Virus record (IMG/VR): IMGVR_UViG_3300009686_000018
Location: 1 to 25,339 of that record
Length of the DNA stretch: 25,339 nt
Origin: a virus
Taxonomy: Duplodnaviria > Caudoviricetes
Direction: 5' to 3' (one strand)
The position numbers were made by a program, and so were the translations under genes. A model generated the notes under the pieces. It was given only the letters and a program-made list of their open reading frames with translations. It had not been told where the DNA came from and ran no database searches. Of the stretch, positions 714 to 14,535 are shown piece after piece; the stretch's first letter is position 1, and every line of letters begins with the position of its first letter.

Positions 714-1937
714 TTAAGCAAATTTCTTAGTGATAGTAACTAAGCTGTTTTTGTCAACAACTTTGCCATCTACTAACATAATTGCTTTTGTTATTTGATC
801 ATCTGTAATATTGTCTTCATATCTTTTGATAGTTACATTATAATTAGTGTTAAGTACGTAATCCTTAAAATTAAACAGGAATGCAACAACAGTATCGGCT
901 GCTATAACTGCTCCTAAACTAGTCATATAATCATTTAATACAACAGTTCTTCCAAGTAGCGTTCTTTCAGGTCTGCCGTTAATTCCATAATTTACTCTAG
1001 CAATTGGTTGTTTTTGTAAATCTACCATTCCGATAAATTTCATAAATGTTTTTTTAGTCATGCCCCAAACAGCATCAGATTCATATGCAAGTGGTAGAGC
1101 GGCTTCGGCATCAACTAGCGTATTGTAAGTAGGTTCTACAGCTACTGCTATATTTACATTTTGTCCTACAATTACTGTTTCTACAAGGATACCTTTTGGT
1201 TGTCCTATACCTGTTCCGCTAATGATAGCTTGCTCTAATGTTTTTGTCATTGCTTCAGCAATATTATTAATTATAGCAGTTTCAAACACTCCTAAAGTAA
1301 CAATGCTAGTCTCAAAAGATACTGAAACGGCACATCTTAATTTAAAATAAGTAAATACTATAGTTCCAGTAGTCTTTTCTTGTTTATCACTTGTAGCGCC
1401 TTCTGCTACCCATGTGGCAACTGGCTTAACTGTCGATGTCGGAATTGCCAAACCACCCTTATATGATGTTTTTGTTACAAGTGGAAGAATCATTCCAGTT
1501 GATTCCATTTTTTCAATTATTTTTTCTAACACTGTCGTAGGAATTACAGAACCTACTTCACTTGTAGTTGTATTAGCATCTACGTTTAAAAACTTTTCTG
1601 GAATTGCAGTGCCTTTTACTACATTGTTCATAAATGCTTTTCTATATTCTACTGAATTATAAACATCTAAATCATTTACAACTGTGATGTTTTCAAATTT
1701 ATCTATAACCGTGCCCTCCATTGATATATTTCCTAATTCAGTAACAATTACTGATTTAGGTTCATTGCTCATTGCGTTTAAATTAGCTTGTGCTTTTGTG
1801 ATATCATTCCATTGTCCATCAAGTGTTTCAACATCTTTTAGTTTTGCATTTGCTTCCTCAACTTTTCCTCCGTTAATTAAAACTTGTGCTTCATTCATTA
1901 AACCTAGTCTTTTAGCCATGTATTCTTGTTTATTCAT
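714..1937 (-). CDS. major capsid protein, HK97 fold, with N-terminal coiled-coil scaffold (delta) domain
   Basis: EYRKAF..., VIPTT, ATWVAEG, AIISGTGIGQPKGIL, TLLGRTVV motifs; after the protease gene. Confidence 0.95.
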   Translation of the reverse strand: MNKQEYMAKRLGLMNEAQVLINGGKVEEANAKLKDVETLDGQWNDITKAQANLNAMSNEPKSVIVTELGNISMEGTVIDKFENITVVNDLDVYNSVEYRKAFMNNVVKGTAIPEKFLNVDANTTTSEVGSVIPTTVLEKIIEKMESTGMILPLVTKTSYKGGLAIPTSTVKPVATWVAEGATSDKQEKTTGTIVFTYFKLRCAVSVSFETSIVTLGVFETAIINNIAEAMTKTLEQAIISGTGIGQPKGILVETVIVGQNVNIAVAVEPTYNTLVDAEAALPLAYESDAVWGMTKKTFMKFIGMVDLQKQPIARVNYGINGRPERTLLGRTVVLNDYMTSLGAVIAADTVVAFLFNFKDYVLNTNYNVTIKRYEDNITDDQITKAIMLVDGKVVDKNSLVTITKKFA

Positions 1938-2637
1938 TTATTTCTCCCTTCAATTTTAATAGATTTAGTTGTGCTTTTGTTTTTTGCATTAAAAAATCCG
2001 CTTCATTGTTATTTACAATGTTCGGATTCTTGATTGTACTTCTTATTTTTTCTATAGCAGCATATGGTATTCCGTTAGAGCTATTAAAAAACCCTTTTAA
2101 TGTTTGATTTTTAGTATCAAACATTACTTCGTCAACAAATTTATTCTTAACAGCATCTTCGGCTGACATCCAAGTTTCGTTATCCATTAATTTTAAAAGT
2201 TCCTTGTCAGTCATGCCTGTTTTTTCTTTATAAGCATTCGCTATAGATTGATTAGCGGTTTTTAAAACATTTGCGCTATGCTCCATGTCTCTATAGTCAC
2301 CGTGAGTACCGCTAGATACATTATGAATCATAAATAAACCTGTAGGAGTTATTTTGCTTTTAGCTGCCATAGATATTACGCTTGCAGCACTAGCGGCCAA
2401 GCCAACAATGCTAATTTCTACATTTCCATTATAGTTTCTGAGCGCTGTGTATATTTCAGAGCCTGCAAATATATCACCGCCTCCACTATTTATATCCACC
2501 TCTATATCTTCACCGCTAGCCTCGTTAAGTGACTTACTTACATCTTTTGGACTTGTAGTTTCTATTCCTAGCCAGTCATAAATCCATTTGTCACCACTGG
2601 ATACTATATCTCCCCTAATACTAATTTTCTTTGCCGT
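1930..2637 (-). CDS. prohead maturation protease, ClpP-like (S14); start probably ACG at 2637 (ORF track uses TTG at 2655)
   Basis: INSGGGD, GLAASAASVI (catalytic Ser), FMIHN (His), ETWMSAEDAV. SD AAAGGAGGTGA with GGAGG 7 nt before ACG-GCA-AAG. Confidence 0.9.
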   Translation of the reverse strand, partial: TAKKISIRGDIVSSGDKWIYDWLGIETTSPKDVSKSLNEASGEDIEVDINSGGGDIFAGSEIYTALRNYNGNVEISIVGLAASAASVISMAAKSKITPTGLFMIHNVSSGTHGDYRDMEHSANVLKTANQSIANAYKEKTGMTDKELLKLMDNETWMSAEDAVKNKFVDEVMFDTKNQTLKGFFNSSNGIPYAAIEKIRSTIKNPNIVNNNEADFLMQKTKAQLNLLKLKGEINE

Positions 2638-2657
2638 ATTCTCACCTCCTTTCAACT

Positions 2658-4169
2658 TTATATGTCATCAACATTTAATGCTTTATCGTCTAGATATATA
2701 TCTGCGGAAATTTTCCTAGTATCGCTTCCATATTCGCTGATAATGTCTTCTAGATTTTCATTTATTCCATCAAACTCAATGCCTTTTTCAGCGCACCAGT
2801 CAACTGCTTCTTGCAACAAATCGTCTGCTCTGCATGTCCACAAGATTATTCTGTTCCCATCTTCTTTTAATTTCTTAACATAGGCTGTAACATTTGTTTT
2901 TTCCCATCCTATTTTAGGATACAAATTATTACAAAGAGTTCCATCAAAATCAACTGCATATACTTTAGATTTTTTGCTATTACTCTTATTTCTAAAAGCA
3001 TTTGCTTTGTTTTTTGGCTCTGACGTTGGTCTGGTATCCAATCGCCTTACATATTCATCACCACCATCTCTAGGAGCATAGTTCATGATTTCTCTTACTT
3101 CATTTGGATTAAATATTCCTAACTCAACGAAAGATGATAATCCTAACTTCGTGGCCATACTTGCAAAAGTTAAACTTGAACTTTCAAATACTATTTTATT
3201 TCCAAATCCTCTCTCCCTTCTTGTAAATAATTTTCTAGTGTATTCGCTGGCCATTTGCATTGCATCAGGTTCTATTCTAGCTTCGTAATAACTAATCCAT
3301 TCATCTTCATTGTAGCTTGACTGTACTATTTTTTTATTTGTGTTAAAAAACGAATAAATTCTTTCAGTCGTACGATCTGTTTGTGCTGCATTAGGTACAA
3401 AGTCTTTAGGTTCTATTCTTGTTGCCGTTGCTTTTGCATCAGTACCAGCTGCTCCAAATGTTTCAGTTTCTACACTTAAATAATTATCAGTAAATTCCTT
3501 TACGTTTTTCTTTAAGTCTTCTGGCCTTAACGAAGTATTGTATTGCAACAACCATCTGATTATTCCGCTGTTTTTAATTGCTTTAATCGTGCCTTGGTCT
3601 ATTATACTAACTACATTCATTAGGCTTGTTAATGCTAATCCTGGTGGCTCTCCAAAGATATCATTACTATTATAATCATCCCTAAGATGTATTACTTCCG
3701 TGTATGGAAATGTCGCCGTTTTTCCGTTTTGAAAATAAAACTTTAGAAATAAATCTCCTGTCTGATTGTAAATTGCTTCAGCAGTCATACAAGGTATTGG
3801 ATATAATTCAACCGGATAACCGTTATCATCTTTTATAATCAAAATAAAAGCATTATTATTTAAAGCAAGCTGGCTTGTGACTTTTTCTTGTAACATTTGT
3901 CCCGACATGTATGGATTAGGGTCTTCTAACAAAAATCTTATATAGGGTTCTGGATTAGTCTTAATTCCCATCGCATCATTGCGTATATGTTTAGGAATTA
4001 ACTTCCCTATGGCTTTTGTTCTAGGTCTAATGCAGGCTCTTACTATATCGCTTTCATATAGTTTGCCATTCCAGGCATAAAAGCCGTTGCCTTTATCAGT
4101 TATCATTTTATATCTTGCTACCGAAGTTATATTATTAAATGCATTTTTGAAATTATTCAATATTCCCAA
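2658..4169 (-). CDS. HK97-family portal protein fused to a C-terminal HAD-superfamily phosphatase domain
   Basis: Portal motifs (PNPYMSG, NNNAF, VIHLRDD...DIFG, PNEVRE...GGD...RRLDT), then a basic linker and AVDFDGTL / WTCR / RK..AD.YLDDKA; no stop between the two parts. Confidence 0.92.
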   Translation of the reverse strand: MGILNNFKNAFNNITSVARYKMITDKGNGFYAWNGKLYESDIVRACIRPRTKAIGKLIPKHIRNDAMGIKTNPEPYIRFLLEDPNPYMSGQMLQEKVTSQLALNNNAFILIIKDDNGYPVELYPIPCMTAEAIYNQTGDLFLKFYFQNGKTATFPYTEVIHLRDDYNSNDIFGEPPGLALTSLMNVVSIIDQGTIKAIKNSGIIRWLLQYNTSLRPEDLKKNVKEFTDNYLSVETETFGAAGTDAKATATRIEPKDFVPNAAQTDRTTERIYSFFNTNKKIVQSSYNEDEWISYYEARIEPDAMQMASEYTRKLFTRRERGFGNKIVFESSSLTFASMATKLGLSSFVELGIFNPNEVREIMNYAPRDGGDEYVRRLDTRPTSEPKNKANAFRNKSNSKKSKVYAVDFDGTLCNNLYPKIGWEKTNVTAYVKKLKEDGNRIILWTCRADDLLQEAVDWCAEKGIEFDGINENLEDIISEYGSDTRKISADIYLDDKALNVDDI

Positions 4170-4187: not shown

Positions 4188-5870
4188 TTAGATGATATTC
4201 ATATAGTCTTCATAATTTCTTTCCAGCACAACATAAGCATCTAGCAAACTTGCTAATCCGTCTATGCGTTTCCTTGGCTTACTTGTTTTAACAGGCTGGA
4301 TATTATCGTTTTTATCTATTTCAACTGCTGTATTTGATAAACACCATTTTAATATTGGATTGTTATTATAATTAACTTTTTTAGCATCCAGGTCAGCGCC
4401 TAAATTTTTCATAGGACCAGATAAAGTTTTTTTACCCTGAATTACTGCTTCCATGCTTTCCTTGCCAAAATAACCCCTCATTTCTTCTACATAATATTCA
4501 GCGCTCCATCCATCGTATCCATGATGTGGAATATAAATATCCTTTTCATTTTGTACTTCTAAAAACCATTGAGCCACATATTTATAATGTACCTTGTTTC
4601 CTGGTGTTGTTCTTAACCAACCTTGATCTCTCCAAATATCATAAGGGATTTTATCTTCTCTTACTCTTAACTCCAACAAATCTTCTGGTAACCAATACAT
4701 TTGCATTACATATACAGTTTCATCTCCCGGTACTTTAAATATTACCGTTCCGCATGTTAAATCCGTGGTTGATGCTAAGTCGGAACCACCTATTCCATAG
4801 CGTGGCTTTAGTAATTCTAAGTTATAAGTAGCTGGATTGTTTAGTTGTTCAAATGTTAGCCACGATTCGGAACTTGTTTCTCTTATGTTGAACTCTTTAC
4901 ATACTAGATTCTTTACTAATAGTGGGTTTTCTTTGGCTTTGTTTACTTTTGCGGATAAAGTTTTAAGGTTTTTTATAGTTCCTAAGCCTGGATTAGCTTT
5001 TTTCCACATTTTTTCATCTGTCCACTCTTTCCTGCTATCCAACTCATAAATAAAAGCTATAAATCTTTCATCTTTATAACCATTATCATCAAAATATCCA
5101 TTTATAACTCTCTCGGCTTCATCATACTTTAAATCATATATATCTTCTCTAATAGTACCTGCTGTAGATGTTATAAATACAAGTGGCTGCTCTCTAGCTC
5201 CCACTCCATCAGCTATAATATCATACAAAGCCTTTCCGTTCTTCCATTGGTGTATTTCATCCATTAGGGCACCGTGGATATTGAGACCGTCCAATGTATC
5301 GGAATCACTTGCTAGTGGTTTATAAATTCCATCATTAAAGTCACTCACTAATTCAGCTACAAGAGACTTTATTCTCTTCCTCAGAGTTGGTGATTTTCTT
5401 ACCATTCTTTTAGCTTCTAACCAAATTATTTTAGCTTGGTCTCGTTTGGATGCAACTGCATATATTTCCGGACCTGCTTCATTATCTCCAACTTGCAGGT
5501 ATAACCCAACACAAGATGCAAGCAATGATTTGCCATTTTTTTTACCTACAATTAAAACTGATTCTCTGTATTGTCTATTACCCTCAATATCAATAAATCC
5601 AAAGATTATCGCAAGTAAAGCTTTTTCCCATAGTTCAAGTATGACTGGTTTACCGCCCATCTTACCCTTGGAGTGCCTGCAAAAGTTTTCTATAAACTCA
5701 ATTATATGATTTGCTCTTGCGTGGCTAAAAAAAAATTCACTATTATTAGTGAGATCATAATTTACTTTTTTATATGTTTTATATATTTTCCTTGGTACAA
5801 TTTCTTGACCACTTTCTATTAAATGCCAATATTCAGATATAGGATTATAGTCAGCAGGATATTTAATCAT
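4188..5870 (-). CDS. terL: terminase large subunit (Terminase_1 type)
   Basis: GKKNGKS Walker A, ALMDE Walker B, ITSTAG, nuclease-domain GSDLA and RIDG. ATG at 5870 overlaps the terS end (track starts at GTG 5879). Confidence 0.95.
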   Translation of the reverse strand: MIKYPADYNPISEYWHLIESGQEIVPRKIYKTYKKVNYDLTNNSEFFFSHARANHIIEFIENFCRHSKGKMGGKPVILELWEKALLAIIFGFIDIEGNRQYRESVLIVGKKNGKSLLASCVGLYLQVGDNEAGPEIYAVASKRDQAKIIWLEAKRMVRKSPTLRKRIKSLVAELVSDFNDGIYKPLASDSDTLDGLNIHGALMDEIHQWKNGKALYDIIADGVGAREQPLVFITSTAGTIREDIYDLKYDEAERVINGYFDDNGYKDERFIAFIYELDSRKEWTDEKMWKKANPGLGTIKNLKTLSAKVNKAKENPLLVKNLVCKEFNIRETSSESWLTFEQLNNPATYNLELLKPRYGIGGSDLASTTDLTCGTVIFKVPGDETVYVMQMYWLPEDLLELRVREDKIPYDIWRDQGWLRTTPGNKVHYKYVAQWFLEVQNEKDIYIPHHGYDGWSAEYYVEEMRGYFGKESMEAVIQGKKTLSGPMKNLGADLDAKKVNYNNNPILKWCLSNTAVEIDKNDNIQPVKTSKPRKRIDGLASLLDAYVVLERNYEDYMNII

Positions 5871-6240
5871 CTCGTCCACTCACGAATGAATCAAAACCAT
5901 CATCTTCTGATTTATCCTTCTTTGGAATTAAATCGGTCAAGGTTTTCATGATAGACACATGATTTTTTATCATAGTATTATATATTTCGACTTCTGGGGA
6001 TTTTTTTGTGCCCCATTGATTCTCTCCATTCTGATACTCTGTTACAGTTCCCTCAGTATTTATTGTTTCTTGAAGGTCATTTAAGGTTACAGCCATAAAA
6101 GCAGCGTTATTGATAAGCGAAGAAACAGTATCTAATGTTTTCTTGTCTAAGTCTTTAAATGAACGTTTAAGTTTTAATATCTCTTTCTTTGTTCTTGCAT
6201 CTTTGTCTTTGTTCTGCAATGTCTGAAGTTCTTGGCTCAT
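5863..6240 (-). CDS. terS: terminase small subunit (P27-like)
   Basis: LI.NAAFM...L..LQE.IN.EG...EYQNGENQWG.K.SP...YNTMIKN; SD GAGGTG before ATG 6240; immediately upstream of terL. Confidence 0.85.
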   Translation of the reverse strand: MSQELQTLQNKDKDARTKKEILKLKRSFKDLDKKTLDTVSSLINNAAFMAVTLNDLQETINTEGTVTEYQNGENQWGTKKSPEVEIYNTMIKNHVSIMKTLTDLIPKKDKSEDDGFDSFVSGRDD

Positions 6241-6259
6241 CTTTATCACCTCTCTTTAT

Positions 6260-6357
6260 GACTACACCCCCTATATAAATGACTTGTGTGTTTTTTGGAA
6301 GTTTCCCAACGGTATTAGCGTTTATATATATATCATATTTTTATGGGGGGTGTAGCC
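6260..6357. other. putative cos/packaging initiation region
   Basis: Non-coding gap between HNH and terS, bounded by the inverted repeat CTACACCCCC (6262-6271) / GGGGGTGTAG (6346-6355). This is the usual cos position in HNH-assisted cos phages. Confidence 0.55.
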
Positions 6358-6389: not shown

Positions 6390-7104
6390 CTACAATTCAA
6401 CTTCATCAAAGTATTTATTGATAATATATTGCTGCAACTCTTTATCTTCTCTTGTATTATCTCTCGTACTTCTTCTTATGCATTCTTCTTTGTCCGTGTC
6501 AATATGTATTAGCTCTGCCTTTAATCTTCTTGATAGTTCACTTCGTTGTGACCTAGTTGGTAGCATACATATAATCCACGCTCTATCATAATGATGTACT
6601 CGTTGTTCTATAAGATCATATATAAGTTCTCTTATGTCTAATGCAAATGCAATTGTATCTTTGCTGTCTTCTCCTAATGATAATGCTGACCTAATATAAT
6701 CTAAGTCAACTACTATATCATGCTGGCCTTTATTCTCTTTTACATAGCTTGTCTTACCGCTTGCTGGCGCACCCCATACAATAAATGTATTCTTATTCTC
6801 TATTATATTTCCATCACTATTAAACATCAATCCCTCTCTTATTGTTGCTAAATTCTTTCCAAATGTTTTTCTGTTATGGCAGTCCAAACAAAGGTATTGA
6901 AAGTTCTCATTGCTCAATGTTACATCAGGATTATTTATATTGTCAGGTGTTATTTCTTTTTTATGGTCCACTATATAACCTAACCGCTCTTTGCACTGTT
7001 GGCACATACCGCCATCAATAGATACTCTATCTGCTATAAAGGATTGTCTGCATAACTTCCATGTCTTGCTATTATAAAACTTCTTCGCAAAAGGGACGTG
7101 CCAT
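6390..7104 (-). CDS. terminase-associated HNH endonuclease fused to a P-loop kinase/ATPase (AAA_33-like); start frame ambiguous
   Basis: FYNSKTW...CQQC...IVDH...N...LCLDCHN, then FIVWGAPASGKT, DLD, EECIRR..RD. The best SD points to ATG 7104, one base out of frame with the body (see findings). Confidence 0.85.
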
Positions 7105-7188
7105 AGCATCACCTCCTTATCTAATTGTCTAATTTTTAAACGTGCATTTTTAAACACGAAATGAGCTTGCTCCATCGCACCAGTACAA

Positions 7189-9093: not shown

Positions 9094-10530
9094 CTAAACT
9101 GCTACATTTTCAATATTTTCTTCTTGATAATTGGCTTCTACTAATGCCTTTGCTAATGGAGGACAAACACTATTACCGCACTTTGCAGTTTGTTCTGTGG
9201 TTGGGTATGGATTGCCGTTGCTATCCCTATTAATTATGTAATCATCGGGAAATCCCTGTGCCTTAAATAATTCGTGCGGTTTCAACATTCTCATACCTAT
9301 GTCAATAATTTGATAATCCTCACCCTTAATTGTTACAAGTCCAAATCTATCTTTAGTAGTAATGGTATGCAACGGACTGTTAATTGTTTGTCCTATGTCA
9401 GCACCATAGTATTTCAATAAAAATGCTGTTACTAAATTCGATTTATTTACTGTTGTTGAAGTTGCTAATGGTTTATTCAACTCGTGTCCTGTTGAAGTAT
9501 GAAACTGTCTGCTAATAAATGCTGTTATAAGCGCCTGATGGTCTTTGGTTGTCAGGGTATGAAGTGGTTCTTCTAAATTGCTTCCTGCCCCTTCATATGT
9601 TCCGGCATAATATTTACTTATAAAAGCTGTAACTAATCCGAATCTATTTGCAGTTGGTATTGTTGCTATTGGTTCATCAAGACCACTTCCCCTTATCTCT
9701 TCTCCCTGAGCTGTGTAGTAATGCTGTAAGAACATTGCTTTTTCATCTAGCACAAATGGCTTATCTGCCTCTGTAACAAATTTTCTTATTCCTTTTGCTA
9801 TTCTTTCAAGTGTGTTTTCTGCTAATGGTTTCTTTCTGGTAAAGATACTAGGACAAGATATGCTCCAATCAATACACTCTGCTGCCGTTCTCCATGGCTT
9901 TAACAATCCGCATCTAACTTCAATACCTTCTGGATTTCCATGAGTTGGTTCAGGCCATATAATTTGTTTGCCGTCGCATCTTGCTATCATAAAGAATCTT
10001 TTTCTTGTTGTTGGAGCTCCATAATCACATGCTCGTAATTCTCTAAATGATACTTTATAGCCTTGTTTTTCAAGTGCTTTAATAAATAAATGAAACGTCT
10101 CTCCTTTTTTATTTGGGTCTGGATATAAGTCGCCTTTATCATCTGTAATTAATGGTCCCCAGGTTTGAAATTCCTCAACATTTTCAAGAATTATTATCCT
10201 TGGATGAACTGCTTTCGCCCACTTAACAACTACCCACGCTAATCCTCGAACATTTTTGTCTACTGGCTTACCGCCTTTAGCTTTTGAAAAGTGTTTGCAA
10301 TCAGGTGATGCCCACATTAATCCTACAAGTTGTCCTTGTGTCGCTTGTAATGGGTCTATATCCCACACATTTTCGATGTAATGTTTTGTGTTGGGATGAT
10401 TAACTTCATGCATTTTTATTGCCATTTCATCATGATTGATGGCTATGTCCACCGAACGCCCTATTGCCATTTCTATTCCTGTACTGGCACCACCTCCGCC
10501 CGCAAACGAATCAATTATAAGTTCTCTCAT
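9094..10530 (-). CDS. C5-cytosine DNA methyltransferase (phage type)
   Basis: Motif I DSFAGGGGAS, catalytic SPDC, ENV, GAPT.RKR, RML...E...AQGFP, GNSV.P; SD GGAGG. Confidence 0.95.
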   Translation of the reverse strand: MRELIIDSFAGGGGASTGIEMAIGRSVDIAINHDEMAIKMHEVNHPNTKHYIENVWDIDPLQATQGQLVGLMWASPDCKHFSKAKGGKPVDKNVRGLAWVVVKWAKAVHPRIIILENVEEFQTWGPLITDDKGDLYPDPNKKGETFHLFIKALEKQGYKVSFRELRACDYGAPTTRKRFFMIARCDGKQIIWPEPTHGNPEGIEVRCGLLKPWRTAAECIDWSISCPSIFTRKKPLAENTLERIAKGIRKFVTEADKPFVLDEKAMFLQHYYTAQGEEIRGSGLDEPIATIPTANRFGLVTAFISKYYAGTYEGAGSNLEEPLHTLTTKDHQALITAFISRQFHTSTGHELNKPLATSTTVNKSNLVTAFLLKYYGADIGQTINSPLHTITTKDRFGLVTIKGEDYQIIDIGMRMLKPHELFKAQGFPDDYIINRDSNGNPYPTTEQTAKCGNSVCPPLAKALVEANYQEENIENVAV

Positions 10531-12540: not shown

Positions 12541-12708
12541 CTATCCCCTTTTCATTTGAAATCTTAAATTTCCATTCCAGCCCAATCCGTCCATAAAACT
12601 TTTATACTTTTGATTTGCAAGTTCACGCTCTATTTTAAATTTTCTATAGTCTTCGCAAGTGTCGTGGCAAGCTAATTTTCTTTCAGGGCAATTTATACAT
12701 TTGTTCAT
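12541..12708 (-). CDS. small Cys/His metal-binding protein (55 aa; not in ORF track)
   Basis: MNKCINCPERKLACHDTCEDYRKFK...; ATGA overlap with the methyltransferase stop; SD GAGGT. Confidence 0.7.
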   Translation of the reverse strand: MNKCINCPERKLACHDTCEDYRKFKIERELANQKYKSFMDGLGWNGNLRFQMKRG

Positions 12709-13742
12709 ATAGACCTCTCAAATAAACTTATTTGAGCTTTTTCTTCTTTAAGTCTTTTTTCTGCCATATTGCAATATTCTTTGTTTAATTCAAATCCAAT
12801 GAAATTTTTATTATGTTTTATTGAAGCTAATGCGACAGTACCACTTCCCATGAACGGATCTAAAACAATTCCTTTCTCTTTACAACCAGCTAATATACAA
12901 GGCTCTATTAATTCTAACGGAAATGTTGCAAAATGTGCTTCTTTAAATGGCTTTGTAGATACAATCCAAACATCTCTTTTATTTCGTTTCTCGTGAAAAT
13001 CATATGCATTTCCTGATTTAGTTCGATTAAAAATTTCTGGATTTGCAGTATATTTATTTCCACCATATCTCGGCGCAACTGCCTTCATAACTCCGTTTGT
13101 TTTTCCATATACCCTGTTAGAACCTTTTTGATTCTCAATATCTTGTTGTAATCGCTTAACTGTGCTATTTGCGACAGGTTCAGAAATTGCTTCTGCATTG
13201 AAATAATATTTCGGTGATTTTGAAAGTAAAAAAATATATTCATGACTTTTAGTACATCTATCTTTTACACTTTCAGGCATTGGATTAGGTTTGGCCCAAA
13301 TAATATCTTGTCTTAAATACCATCCATCTGACTGCAGTGCAAATGCTACTCTCCATGGAATACCAACTAATTCTTTTCGCTTAAGATTTGCTGGTATTTT
13401 AGGCATCTTACACTGAGAACTATTTTTATTTGGTACATATACTTCTTTTTGCTTTTGGTTATTACTCCACGAACCTTTTCCACTGCCTGTATAACTATCA
13501 CCCAAATTAAGCCACAGTGTACCGTCATCTTTTAAAACCCTCTTGACCTCTTTAAAAACAGTAACTAAATTATCTACGTATTGCTCAGGAGTATCTTCTA
13601 ACCCTAGTTGTCCATCTACTCCATAATCTCTCAATCCCCAATATGGTGGTGAGGTGACACAGCAATCAACGGTTTTATCTATAATTAATCTCATGCCATC
13701 CACACAATCCATATTGTAGAAACTATTTAGTTTTAATTCCAT
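12705..13742 (-). CDS. amino (likely N4-cytosine) DNA methyltransferase, beta class
   Basis: TSPPY catalytic motif N-terminal, LWLNLGDSY, HEYIFL, HFATFP, DPFMGSGT SAM motif C-terminal. Confidence 0.92.
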   Translation of the reverse strand: MELKLNSFYNMDCVDGMRLIIDKTVDCCVTSPPYWGLRDYGVDGQLGLEDTPEQYVDNLVTVFKEVKRVLKDDGTLWLNLGDSYTGSGKGSWSNNQKQKEVYVPNKNSSQCKMPKIPANLKRKELVGIPWRVAFALQSDGWYLRQDIIWAKPNPMPESVKDRCTKSHEYIFLLSKSPKYYFNAEAISEPVANSTVKRLQQDIENQKGSNRVYGKTNGVMKAVAPRYGGNKYTANPEIFNRTKSGNAYDFHEKRNKRDVWIVSTKPFKEAHFATFPLELIEPCILAGCKEKGIVLDPFMGSGTVALASIKHNKNFIGFELNKEYCNMAEKRLKEEKAQISLFERSI

Positions 13743-14535
13743 AGGTTCCTCCTAAAATGAGCTTATTTGCTTTTATCTGTTCAAATTCTTGCTGAAGCAT
13801 AGATATTTGAATATTGTTTGCTAACTTAGAATTAAAATCATCAACATATTGTTTTTTAATTTCAAACCCATATGATTTTCTTCCTAACATTTCAGCCGCA
13901 AGTAATGTTACCCCACTACCTGCGCATGGGTCTATTACAACGTCCCCAACGTCTGTAAATATTGATATAAGTTTCTTAATTACTTTTATGCTTTTCTGTG
14001 TAGGATGTATTTTAGGCGTTTCGTTATCTCTCTCATAATCCATGCAATTAAATATCATCTTTCTTTCGTTGTTAAATTTAGGTAATTTCTCTCTGTATAA
14101 AAGCACTGCATATTCGCAATTTCCTACAACTTTCATGTTTGCTTTTAATACCTGAGCTGAATAGTTTTTTCTAAACACAAGATTGATGTAATGATTAAAG
14201 CCGTATTCCTTACCTTTTTCTATCAACATAAATTGCTGTTCAAACTCGCAAAATACAATCATGCAACCCGCTTGTCCTGTCTCTTTTGGTTCTTTTTTTA
14301 ACATTGTGCTGACAAAGTGCATAAACTCTGGTATTTTAAAATCGTTGTCAGTGTCGAAGAAAGTTGTCTTTGCTAAGTTGCTTTCACCGTTTTTATTGTC
14401 GCCGTCTTTATACCAACTCGGATTAGAAGCATAAGCATTTGTGGAAATATTATAAGGAATATCTGCTATAACTAGTTGTGCTTTAGGCAAACTATATCTT
14501 TTATAGTTCTGAAAGTGGTCTCTGTAAAGTTCCAT
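13723..14535 (-). CDS. amino (likely N6-adenine) DNA methyltransferase, beta class
   Basis: ADIPYN catalytic motif, HPTQK, DPCAGSG SAM motif, GFEI. Its SD AGGAGG is the last two codons of the upstream gene. Confidence 0.9.
   Translation of the reverse strand: MELYRDHFQNYKRYSLPKAQLVIADIPYNISTNAYASNPSWYKDGDNKNGESNLAKTTFFDTDNDFKIPEFMHFVSTMLKKEPKETGQAGCMIVFCEFEQQFMLIEKGKEYGFNHYINLVFRKNYSAQVLKANMKVVGNCEYAVLLYREKLPKFNNERKMIFNCMDYERDNETPKIHPTQKSIKVIKKLISIFTDVGDVVIDPCAGSGVTLLAAEMLGRKSYGFEIKKQYVDDFNSKLANNIQISMLQQEFEQIKANKLILGGTYGIKTK

Follow-up and report, generated by a model that had tools for sequence, protein, structure and literature searches.

A HAD phosphatase domain fused in frame to the portal protein of a temperate phage: candidate clipped head cargo alongside a packaging nuclease with a kinase-like domain

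The window, by which we mean the whole stretch of 25,339 nucleotides analysed here (a 25-kb virus record, IMGVR_UViG_3300009686_000018, 68% complete), carries integrase, repressor and replication genes together with three DNA methyltransferase genes (9094-10530, 12705-13742 and 13723-14535, two of the three in tandem), and the phage that carries the fusion described below is temperate. Its late module lies on the minus strand and contains a packaging HNH nuclease (6390..7175; PF01844, PF13671, phrog_4581, phrog_505) with a C-terminal P-loop, Pnk-like kinase domain (6393-6800), a small terminase (5863..6249; assigned by position and by a PF05119 match of E 1e-3, below cut-off), a large terminase (4188..5879; PF03354 and PF20441), the portal, a ClpP-type head maturation protease (1930..2655; NF045542 above cut-off), an HK97-type major capsid protein (714..1937; TIGR01554, PF05065) and a connector. 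A candidate cos region lies between the genes for HNH and small terminase, at ~6262-6355: an inverted repeat of 10 bp that has a C-run/G-run. Since all named relatives come from prophages in Clostridium, Acetobacterium and Anaerosalibacter, a clostridial Firmicute is the likely host; the sequencing runs that contain the window are recorded as glacier metagenomes.

The gene situated between the large terminase and the prohead protease/HK97 capsid genes is a single open frame of 503 amino acids (4169..2658, minus strand) in which a portal protein continues without a stop into a C-terminal HAD domain, just as a first-pass annotation of this DNA had proposed. Residues 1-384 (3018..4169) make up an HK97-type portal, an assignment based on Pfam, PHROG (phrog_12) and gene order: PF04860 matches residues 43-363 (E 6e-49; 167 bits against a gathering score of 39.1), TIGR01537 scores 88.9, under its cut-off of 112.05, and the HK97 portal 8cez aligns to residue 377 of 384 (E 1e-6). 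The nearest portals (77-83% identical) are unfused and end in ...RLDTRPTSE-stop, so that RPTSE is the native portal end and the added linker starts at P385. The annotation had placed a basic linker of about 23 amino acids after RLDT; a linker there is, spanning the 18 residues P385-K402 (2964..3017), and it is rich in Asn as well as Lys, not simply basic. The HAD domain occupies residues 403-503 and, with the stop, positions 2658..2963.

The junction DNA, on inspection, holds no in-frame ATG, GTG or TTG between RLDT and the HAD and no strong Shine-Dalgarno (SD) sequence, in agreement with what had been noted, and an internal start for the HAD can be set aside. Read-through from the fused gene into the protease can likewise be discarded, the protease being in another frame. 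Contigs from three runs (contigs only) cross the junction gap-free, with neither a stop nor an indel in the linker; two of these runs are possibly the source of the window DNA, and the contig from the third, which has 6 differences over 1900-3215, among them a silent change at V403 and A448E, keeps the frame. A frame or assembly error is rejected on the grounds that this contig keeps the frame despite other letters and that independent fused homologues exist. The portal-HAD fusion is real.

The HAD is closest, in both sequence and fold, to the BT0820 family (NF046079, PDB 2obb, phrog_1238), with NF046079 matching residues 403-498 (E 2e-28) and 2obb matching at E 8e-20. It differs from that family in being fused, in lacking the last ~40 profile positions and in scoring below cut-off (102.8 bits against 165, over positions 2-97 of a 137-position model); by these scores it is BT0820-like and not a member of the NF046079 equivalog. 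We found no substrate for the BT0820 family in the literature. All four expected HAD motifs are present and intact (D407xD409GT, W-T445-C-R447, K486 and D494-D495; window 2963-2682), and by these the phosphatase domain is predicted to be catalytically intact. Among head-module HAD copies, a strict motif pattern was passed by 38 of 44, the remaining 6 deviating, by eye, at non-catalytic places.

A structure model of the HAD has pLDDT above 90 over the domain, whereas the linker is of low confidence and without secondary structure; a model of the full-length portal-HAD (mean pLDDT 41) was not used. Motifs, model and fold search together place the DxD, S/T, K and DD motifs on a Rossmannoid core without a cap. 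In a search of 48,161 solved chains, 2obb came first (Z 15.8, rmsd 2.2 over 101), followed by the nearest characterised structures (Z 8.3-9.2), which share the capless HAD fold: the phosphatase of T4 Pnkp (1ltq, 5uj0) at Z 9.2 (rmsd 3.1, 92 aligned) and 8.9, and Pnkp1 (4xrp) at Z 8.3. Other HADs trail these closely (Z 7.8-7.5), among them the phage sugar phosphatase AfhF at Z 7.7. With Foldseek, 2obb was the sole match under E 0.001, and PF25109, the T4 Pnkp-type phosphatase profile, gave 17.3 bits, under its gathering score of 27.6. The NF046079 match, 2obb and the fold search thus bear out what had been suggested beforehand, namely that the domain is a capless HAD and resembles the 3'-phosphatase of T4 Pnkp. 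A PADLOC search returned no match for the HAD. Across 10 pairs, dN/dS of the HAD was 0.05-0.13 in 7 of the 8 that gave a ratio and 0.45 in one pair with 3 differences; the domain is under purifying selection, and the linker (0.2-0.7 in the same pair set) is freer.

Fusions of this kind recur. The HAD is found in 5 of 75 portal loci, the window phage included, and in all 5 it is fused to the portal. Apart from the window portal, the remaining 119 of the 120 best-scoring portal homologues measure 340-426 amino acids and are hence unfused. A profile built from head-module HADs was used to collect longer homologues, and among the 120 listed there are 22 portal, 34 S78-protease and 19 ClpP-protease fusions, the best 60 all being of one of these three types. 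The portal-HAD architecture that the annotation had suggested seeking in other phages is therefore represented by 21 other clusters among the matches listed. Within loci, the HAD forms either the C-terminal part of the portal or the N-terminal part of the protease; in one locus, L005, it stands unfused between the two genes. Nor is it always encoded separately in relatives: in non-redundant loci collapsed at 92%, the HAD is part of a portal or protease in 21 of the 23 head-module copies, whereas 27 of 127 HAD loci outside the head module have a fusion (Fisher 2e-10).

At least six changes (starred branches) are required to account for the 12 fused portals on a tree of 87, in which the window portal is nested among unfused portals; a single origin of the fusion is rejected. 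All portal and protease HAD fusions fall within one 50-row subtree of the HAD tree (SH-aLRT 90; a quick tree of 105 columns), and non-head copies also lie inside it, so that the tree does not show a clean head-module clade. The wider HAD family comprises 2403 clusters at E 1e-10; most members either stand alone in early regions or have Tad3, DUF6273 or another fusion partner, and unfused copies abound in regions of early and replication genes. HAD fusions to Tad3 (anti-Thoeris) are numerous in gut phages, outside the head module (P0013, P0015-P0017, L043, L046 and others), and in L144, L146, L152, L158 and L162 an Oscillospiraceae cassette combines a free HAD with a Y-family polymerase, an IrrE/ImmA-like peptidase and an SRAP protein. 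In four polyproteins with a HAD (P0055, P0056, P0060 and P0064, one with PBECR2), Glu-x-Arg and then an NPxHDP motif mark the joints between modules; these polyproteins are likely S78-cut head cargo. An S78-lineage portal (L463:297-1970) carries a C-terminal GNAT acetyltransferase past an S-Q-R-containing linker, the same slot with different cargo.

How the HAD might be released is suggested by the linkers. In HK97-type siphophages the prohead protease is reported to remove a delta domain of ~120 amino acids (as given in the available text of PMC5390265). We aligned non-redundant capsid proteins from loci of known protease type (L279, which has a different capsid type, was omitted) and found hydrophobic-x-Asn ~15 residues before a conserved VIP in 19 of 24 ClpP-type major capsid proteins, whereas all 5 S78-type ones have Glu/Gln-x-Arg there. 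The window capsid has F116-L117-N118 (1592-1584) as its predicted delta-domain cut motif. Three of the five ClpP-type exceptions have Lys-Gln at the motif position and, from the alignment, look like a third, Gln-type group. In the ClpP-type group formed by L005, L041/L202 and L275, capsid and protease have Lys/Arg-Gln at the predicted cut positions, and a Gln-specific prohead protease is possible there.

The same motifs recur in the linkers. Of 12 portal-HAD linkers, 11 have hydrophobic-x-Asn 3-9 residues ahead of the first HAD strand, where shuffles expect 2.5, this offset window having been chosen after the first linkers were inspected and the linkers being partly interdependent; counted irrespective of position, the motif occurs 24 times against 10.1+-2.6 in shuffles. 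It is present in 14 of 79 control HAD extensions and in 3 of 3 newly found ClpP-lineage fusions, which brings the ClpP-lineage total to 14 of 15. S78-lineage fusions, by contrast, have Glu-x-Arg in 4 of 5 linkers (0.22 expected; two of the five portals are 82% identical) against 1 of 15 in the ClpP lineage (Fisher 0.005), and the Asn motif in 2 of 5 against 14 of 15 (p 0.03). For the five S78-lineage and two of the ClpP-lineage fused portals the protease type was assigned from relatives; an S78 protease lies downstream in 112 of 118 loci of S78-lineage relatives and a ClpP protease in none. Since 36-residue windows after protease-fused HADs fail to separate the protease types (hydrophobic-x-Asn in 24 of 32 S78 and 14 of 19 ClpP), the motif is informative only with a narrow offset and a shuffle control.

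Because the linker motif follows protease type and matches the motif before the mature capsid protein, the HAD is likely clipped off within the prohead. The predicted cut in the window lies between N394 and K395, after F392-R393-N394 (2996-2985), at -9, where the usual offset is -5 to -7; N397 stands at the position most relatives use but has no hydrophobic residue before it. We found no measurement of site specificity for these ClpP-type proteases in the literature, and Asn specificity of these head proteases is a prediction from alignment. The protease gene itself has a strong SD followed by ACG at 2637-2635 (minus strand), where close relatives, L308 included, have GTG; this non-canonical codon, and not TTG at 2655, is likely the start. 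The HAD-protease fusions L200, L201 and L278 have ATT, ACG or ATA after the old SD.

The second element of interest is the P-loop domain of the HNH protein, which weakly matches positions 3-139 of phrog_505 (polynucleotide kinase; E 6e-5). The HAD matches positions 152-237 of phrog_505, also weakly, and kinase and HAD thus correspond to two halves of one PHROG. As with T4 Pnkp, a P-loop kinase-like domain is found with the phosphatase, here in the same gene module; unlike in T4 Pnkp, the halves are two genes, 3.3 kb apart and not one chain, each fused to a packaging protein, and the sequence scores lie below the Pfam cut-off. Compared with C. thermocellum-type Pnkp entries the kinase domain gave E 0.2, and its alignment with a guanylate-kinase-like HAD fusion was limited to the P-loop. 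No RNA ligase was seen among the window genes scanned (genome 68% complete).

All 8 portal-HAD loci whose upstream region is covered have the kinase; they represent 5 lineages (the window, L002, L003, L038, L039, L112, L272 and L273; L503 was excluded from the count, having been found by a kinase search). HAD-less loci of the ClpP lineage have it in 1 of 39 covered loci, and in 2 of 49 records, one weak, when 50 of 70 loci were sampled; by lineage, it occurs in 1 of 10 HAD-less lineages against the 5 portal-HAD lineages (Fisher 0.002-0.007). It is also encoded by 12 of 49 S78-lineage records that lack the HAD (50 of 118 sampled) and by 1 of 4 checkable protease-HAD loci, being absent from L277, L200 and L279. 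Viewed from the kinase, loci with the head module covered have a HAD in 6 of 46 and none in 40. A tree-based pairs test of HAD-kinase coupling, on a set enriched for kinase-only rows, had no power and was not significant (4 pairs, median p 0.5). Other phosphatases were looked for at kinase-only loci: in the 17 covered, the extra length of the long portals and proteases examined came down, by eye, to a tail of helical or MuF-like type or to a start called upstream. The HNH-borne kinase domain may be regarded as a candidate partner of the HAD. In L562 the same kinase domain sits on the N-terminus of an S78 head protease, not on an HNH protein. In the cultured Lactobacillus phage LJ, whose host is a food bacterium (L382, MF999224.1; orf34, orf39), the head protease bears a HAD that is missing from the annotation, and an HNH-kinase gene annotated as small terminase encodes the kinase domain.

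From what is established for portals, the C-terminal end of this one is expected to lie inside the capsid. Portals are dodecamers whose crown is exposed at the inner capsid surface (as described in part of PMC10359639). The reading we prefer, with confidence a little short of even, is that the HAD is clipped head cargo, a catalytically intact enzyme and a probable nucleic-acid 3'-phosphatase, working alongside the HNH-borne kinase-like domain. The HAD would be made as part of the portal and enter the prohead with the portal ring, and its presence there, in up to 12 copies, is very probable. During maturation the ClpP-type head protease would cut after Asn394, and release of an enzyme of ~109 amino acids in this way seems a good deal more probable than not, judging from the linker comparison. 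At genomic nicks or ends the freed HAD would take off 3'-phosphates, whether still in the head or once ejected, and the HNH-borne kinase would act on 5' ends at packaging. That such a split-Pnkp pair makes 3'-phosphate/5'-OH nicks or ends sealable by host ligase, in the head or just after ejection, we put at an even chance or slightly better, given clipping or not.

Relatives of the HAD that adjoin SRAP and a Y-family polymerase would point to DNA repair. Terminase and HNH cuts normally leave ligatable ends, and for this reason a need for end healing is not obvious. The most general form of the proposal is speculative and, we think, rather unlikely as it stands: that cos-type phages of Firmicutes carry a polynucleotide kinase-phosphatase split across the packaging machine, with the kinase on a terminase-associated HNH protein and the 3'-phosphatase borne by portal or protease and freed by a protease-matched cut, which would make packaged genome ends and nicks ligatable.

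A different substrate is conceivable with the same loading and clipping: the ejected HAD would dephosphorylate small molecules such as nucleoside monophosphates, defence-signal precursors or sugar phosphates, and the kinase would be merely linked or form a nucleotide kinase/phosphatase pair with it. Elsewhere HAD relatives are fused to or lie beside thymidylate/guanylate-kinase-like nucleotide kinases and dATP/dGTP diphosphohydrolase, which would point to small-molecule substrates, and they are often fused to anti-Thoeris Tad3; a sugar phosphatase, AfhF, is among the fold neighbours (Z 7.7), the kinase is missing from 3 of 4 checkable protease-HAD loci, and the known portal cargoes 2H and Nudix have been proposed to act on nucleotides (in the parts available of PMC5512222 and PMC9503650). 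However, Pnkp phosphatases outrank small-molecule HADs in the fold search, the kinase accompanies all 8 checkable portal-HAD fusions, and 12 or fewer copies per virion would presumably do little to drain a metabolite pool. We regard this reading as doubtful, if still a substantial possibility.

It is unlikely that the HAD instead remains joined to the portal, forming a ring of 12 over the crown that acts on passing DNA or on the last-packaged end. Fusion at the portal C-terminus, on the inner side, would suit such a ring, and the cut is a prediction whose motif in the window is off the modal offset; yet the linker motif changes with protease type, and proteases, which have no fixed place at the channel, carry the HAD as often (53 of the 120 homologues listed). 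The two fates that the first-pass annotation offered thus part company: clipping by the prohead protease gains comparative support, whereas nothing was found in favour of 12 domains remaining at the channel.

Somewhat less plausible again is a mobile phosphatase gene that inserted at the portal/protease junction and became fused by stop-codon loss to borrow late expression, its product being cytoplasmic after clipping, or tolerated. The sporadic occurrence (5 of 75 portal loci, the window phage included), the many HAD-protease fusions that retain the former SD and start of the protease, and the free copies common in early and replication regions would all fit a passenger of this kind, but L005 is the one free copy between portal and protease, 2 of 23 head-module copies are unfused, the HAD is under purifying selection, and protease-matched motifs persist within otherwise fast-changing linkers. 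A stop codon lost by assembly or sequencing error, for which one could cite that the data are contigs and that two of the runs possibly equal the source, is highly improbable given the same frame with other letters in the third run, the 21 other portal-HAD clusters among the matches listed and the lack of a start for the HAD.

The internal proteins of T4 and Alt are loaded into the prohead, trimmed by the head protease and ejected, their loading being by way of a targeting peptide and not a portal fusion. The proposed fate of the HAD resembles theirs as prohead cargo freed by the head protease, and differs in that portal fusion would be the loading route. Alt is also covered in PMC5512222, in the text available, which describes polyvalent proteins with PBECR, 2H and InPase on MuF or portal, as PMC9503650, again in part, describes Nudix fused to MuF, portal and the capsid-processing peptidase; in both, the enzymes are proposed to be packaged and injected. 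These fusions, like that of the window, place a catalytic domain on a portal or head protease. The window cargo differs in being a HAD, in a joint motif that tracks protease type and in a suggested kinase partner, and its single cargo domain sets it apart from strict polyvalent proteins, which have several effector domains per chain. The main text of PMC5512222 contains neither 'phosphatase' nor 'haloacid', and its supplements may list such an architecture; a portal-HAD was not seen in the available parts of PMC5576092, PMC3482391 and PMC7824862. The annotation knew of no described case of the fusion: for portal-HAD we found no paper in a search of the literature outside subscription journals, and enzyme domains on portals are already known (PMC5512222, PMC9503650).

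The HNH protein has a counterpart in gp54 of Lactobacillus phage Lrm1, which has the architecture of window 6390-7175 (phrog_4581), an N-terminal HNH and a C-terminal Walker A, beside terminase. For gp54, nicking with no effect of NTP was reported and the role of the P-loop was left open, and the available text draws no link to a phosphatase (PMC3592412).

With these findings, a phosphatase joins the enzymes for which core head proteins seem to serve temperate phages as a loading route, and the change of linker motif with protease family is comparative evidence on cargo release. The findings predict an Asn-specific cut by one group of ClpP-type prohead proteases. The portal C-terminus emerges as a natural slot that tolerates an enzyme of 100 amino acids (a GNAT in L463 too), which would be useful for loading proteins into capsids. 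They also suggest a candidate partner for the P-loop domain whose role was left open in the available text of PMC3592412 and, if true, a split Pnkp would give roles to the BT0820-like family and to the orphan P-loop domain of Lrm1-type HNH proteins.
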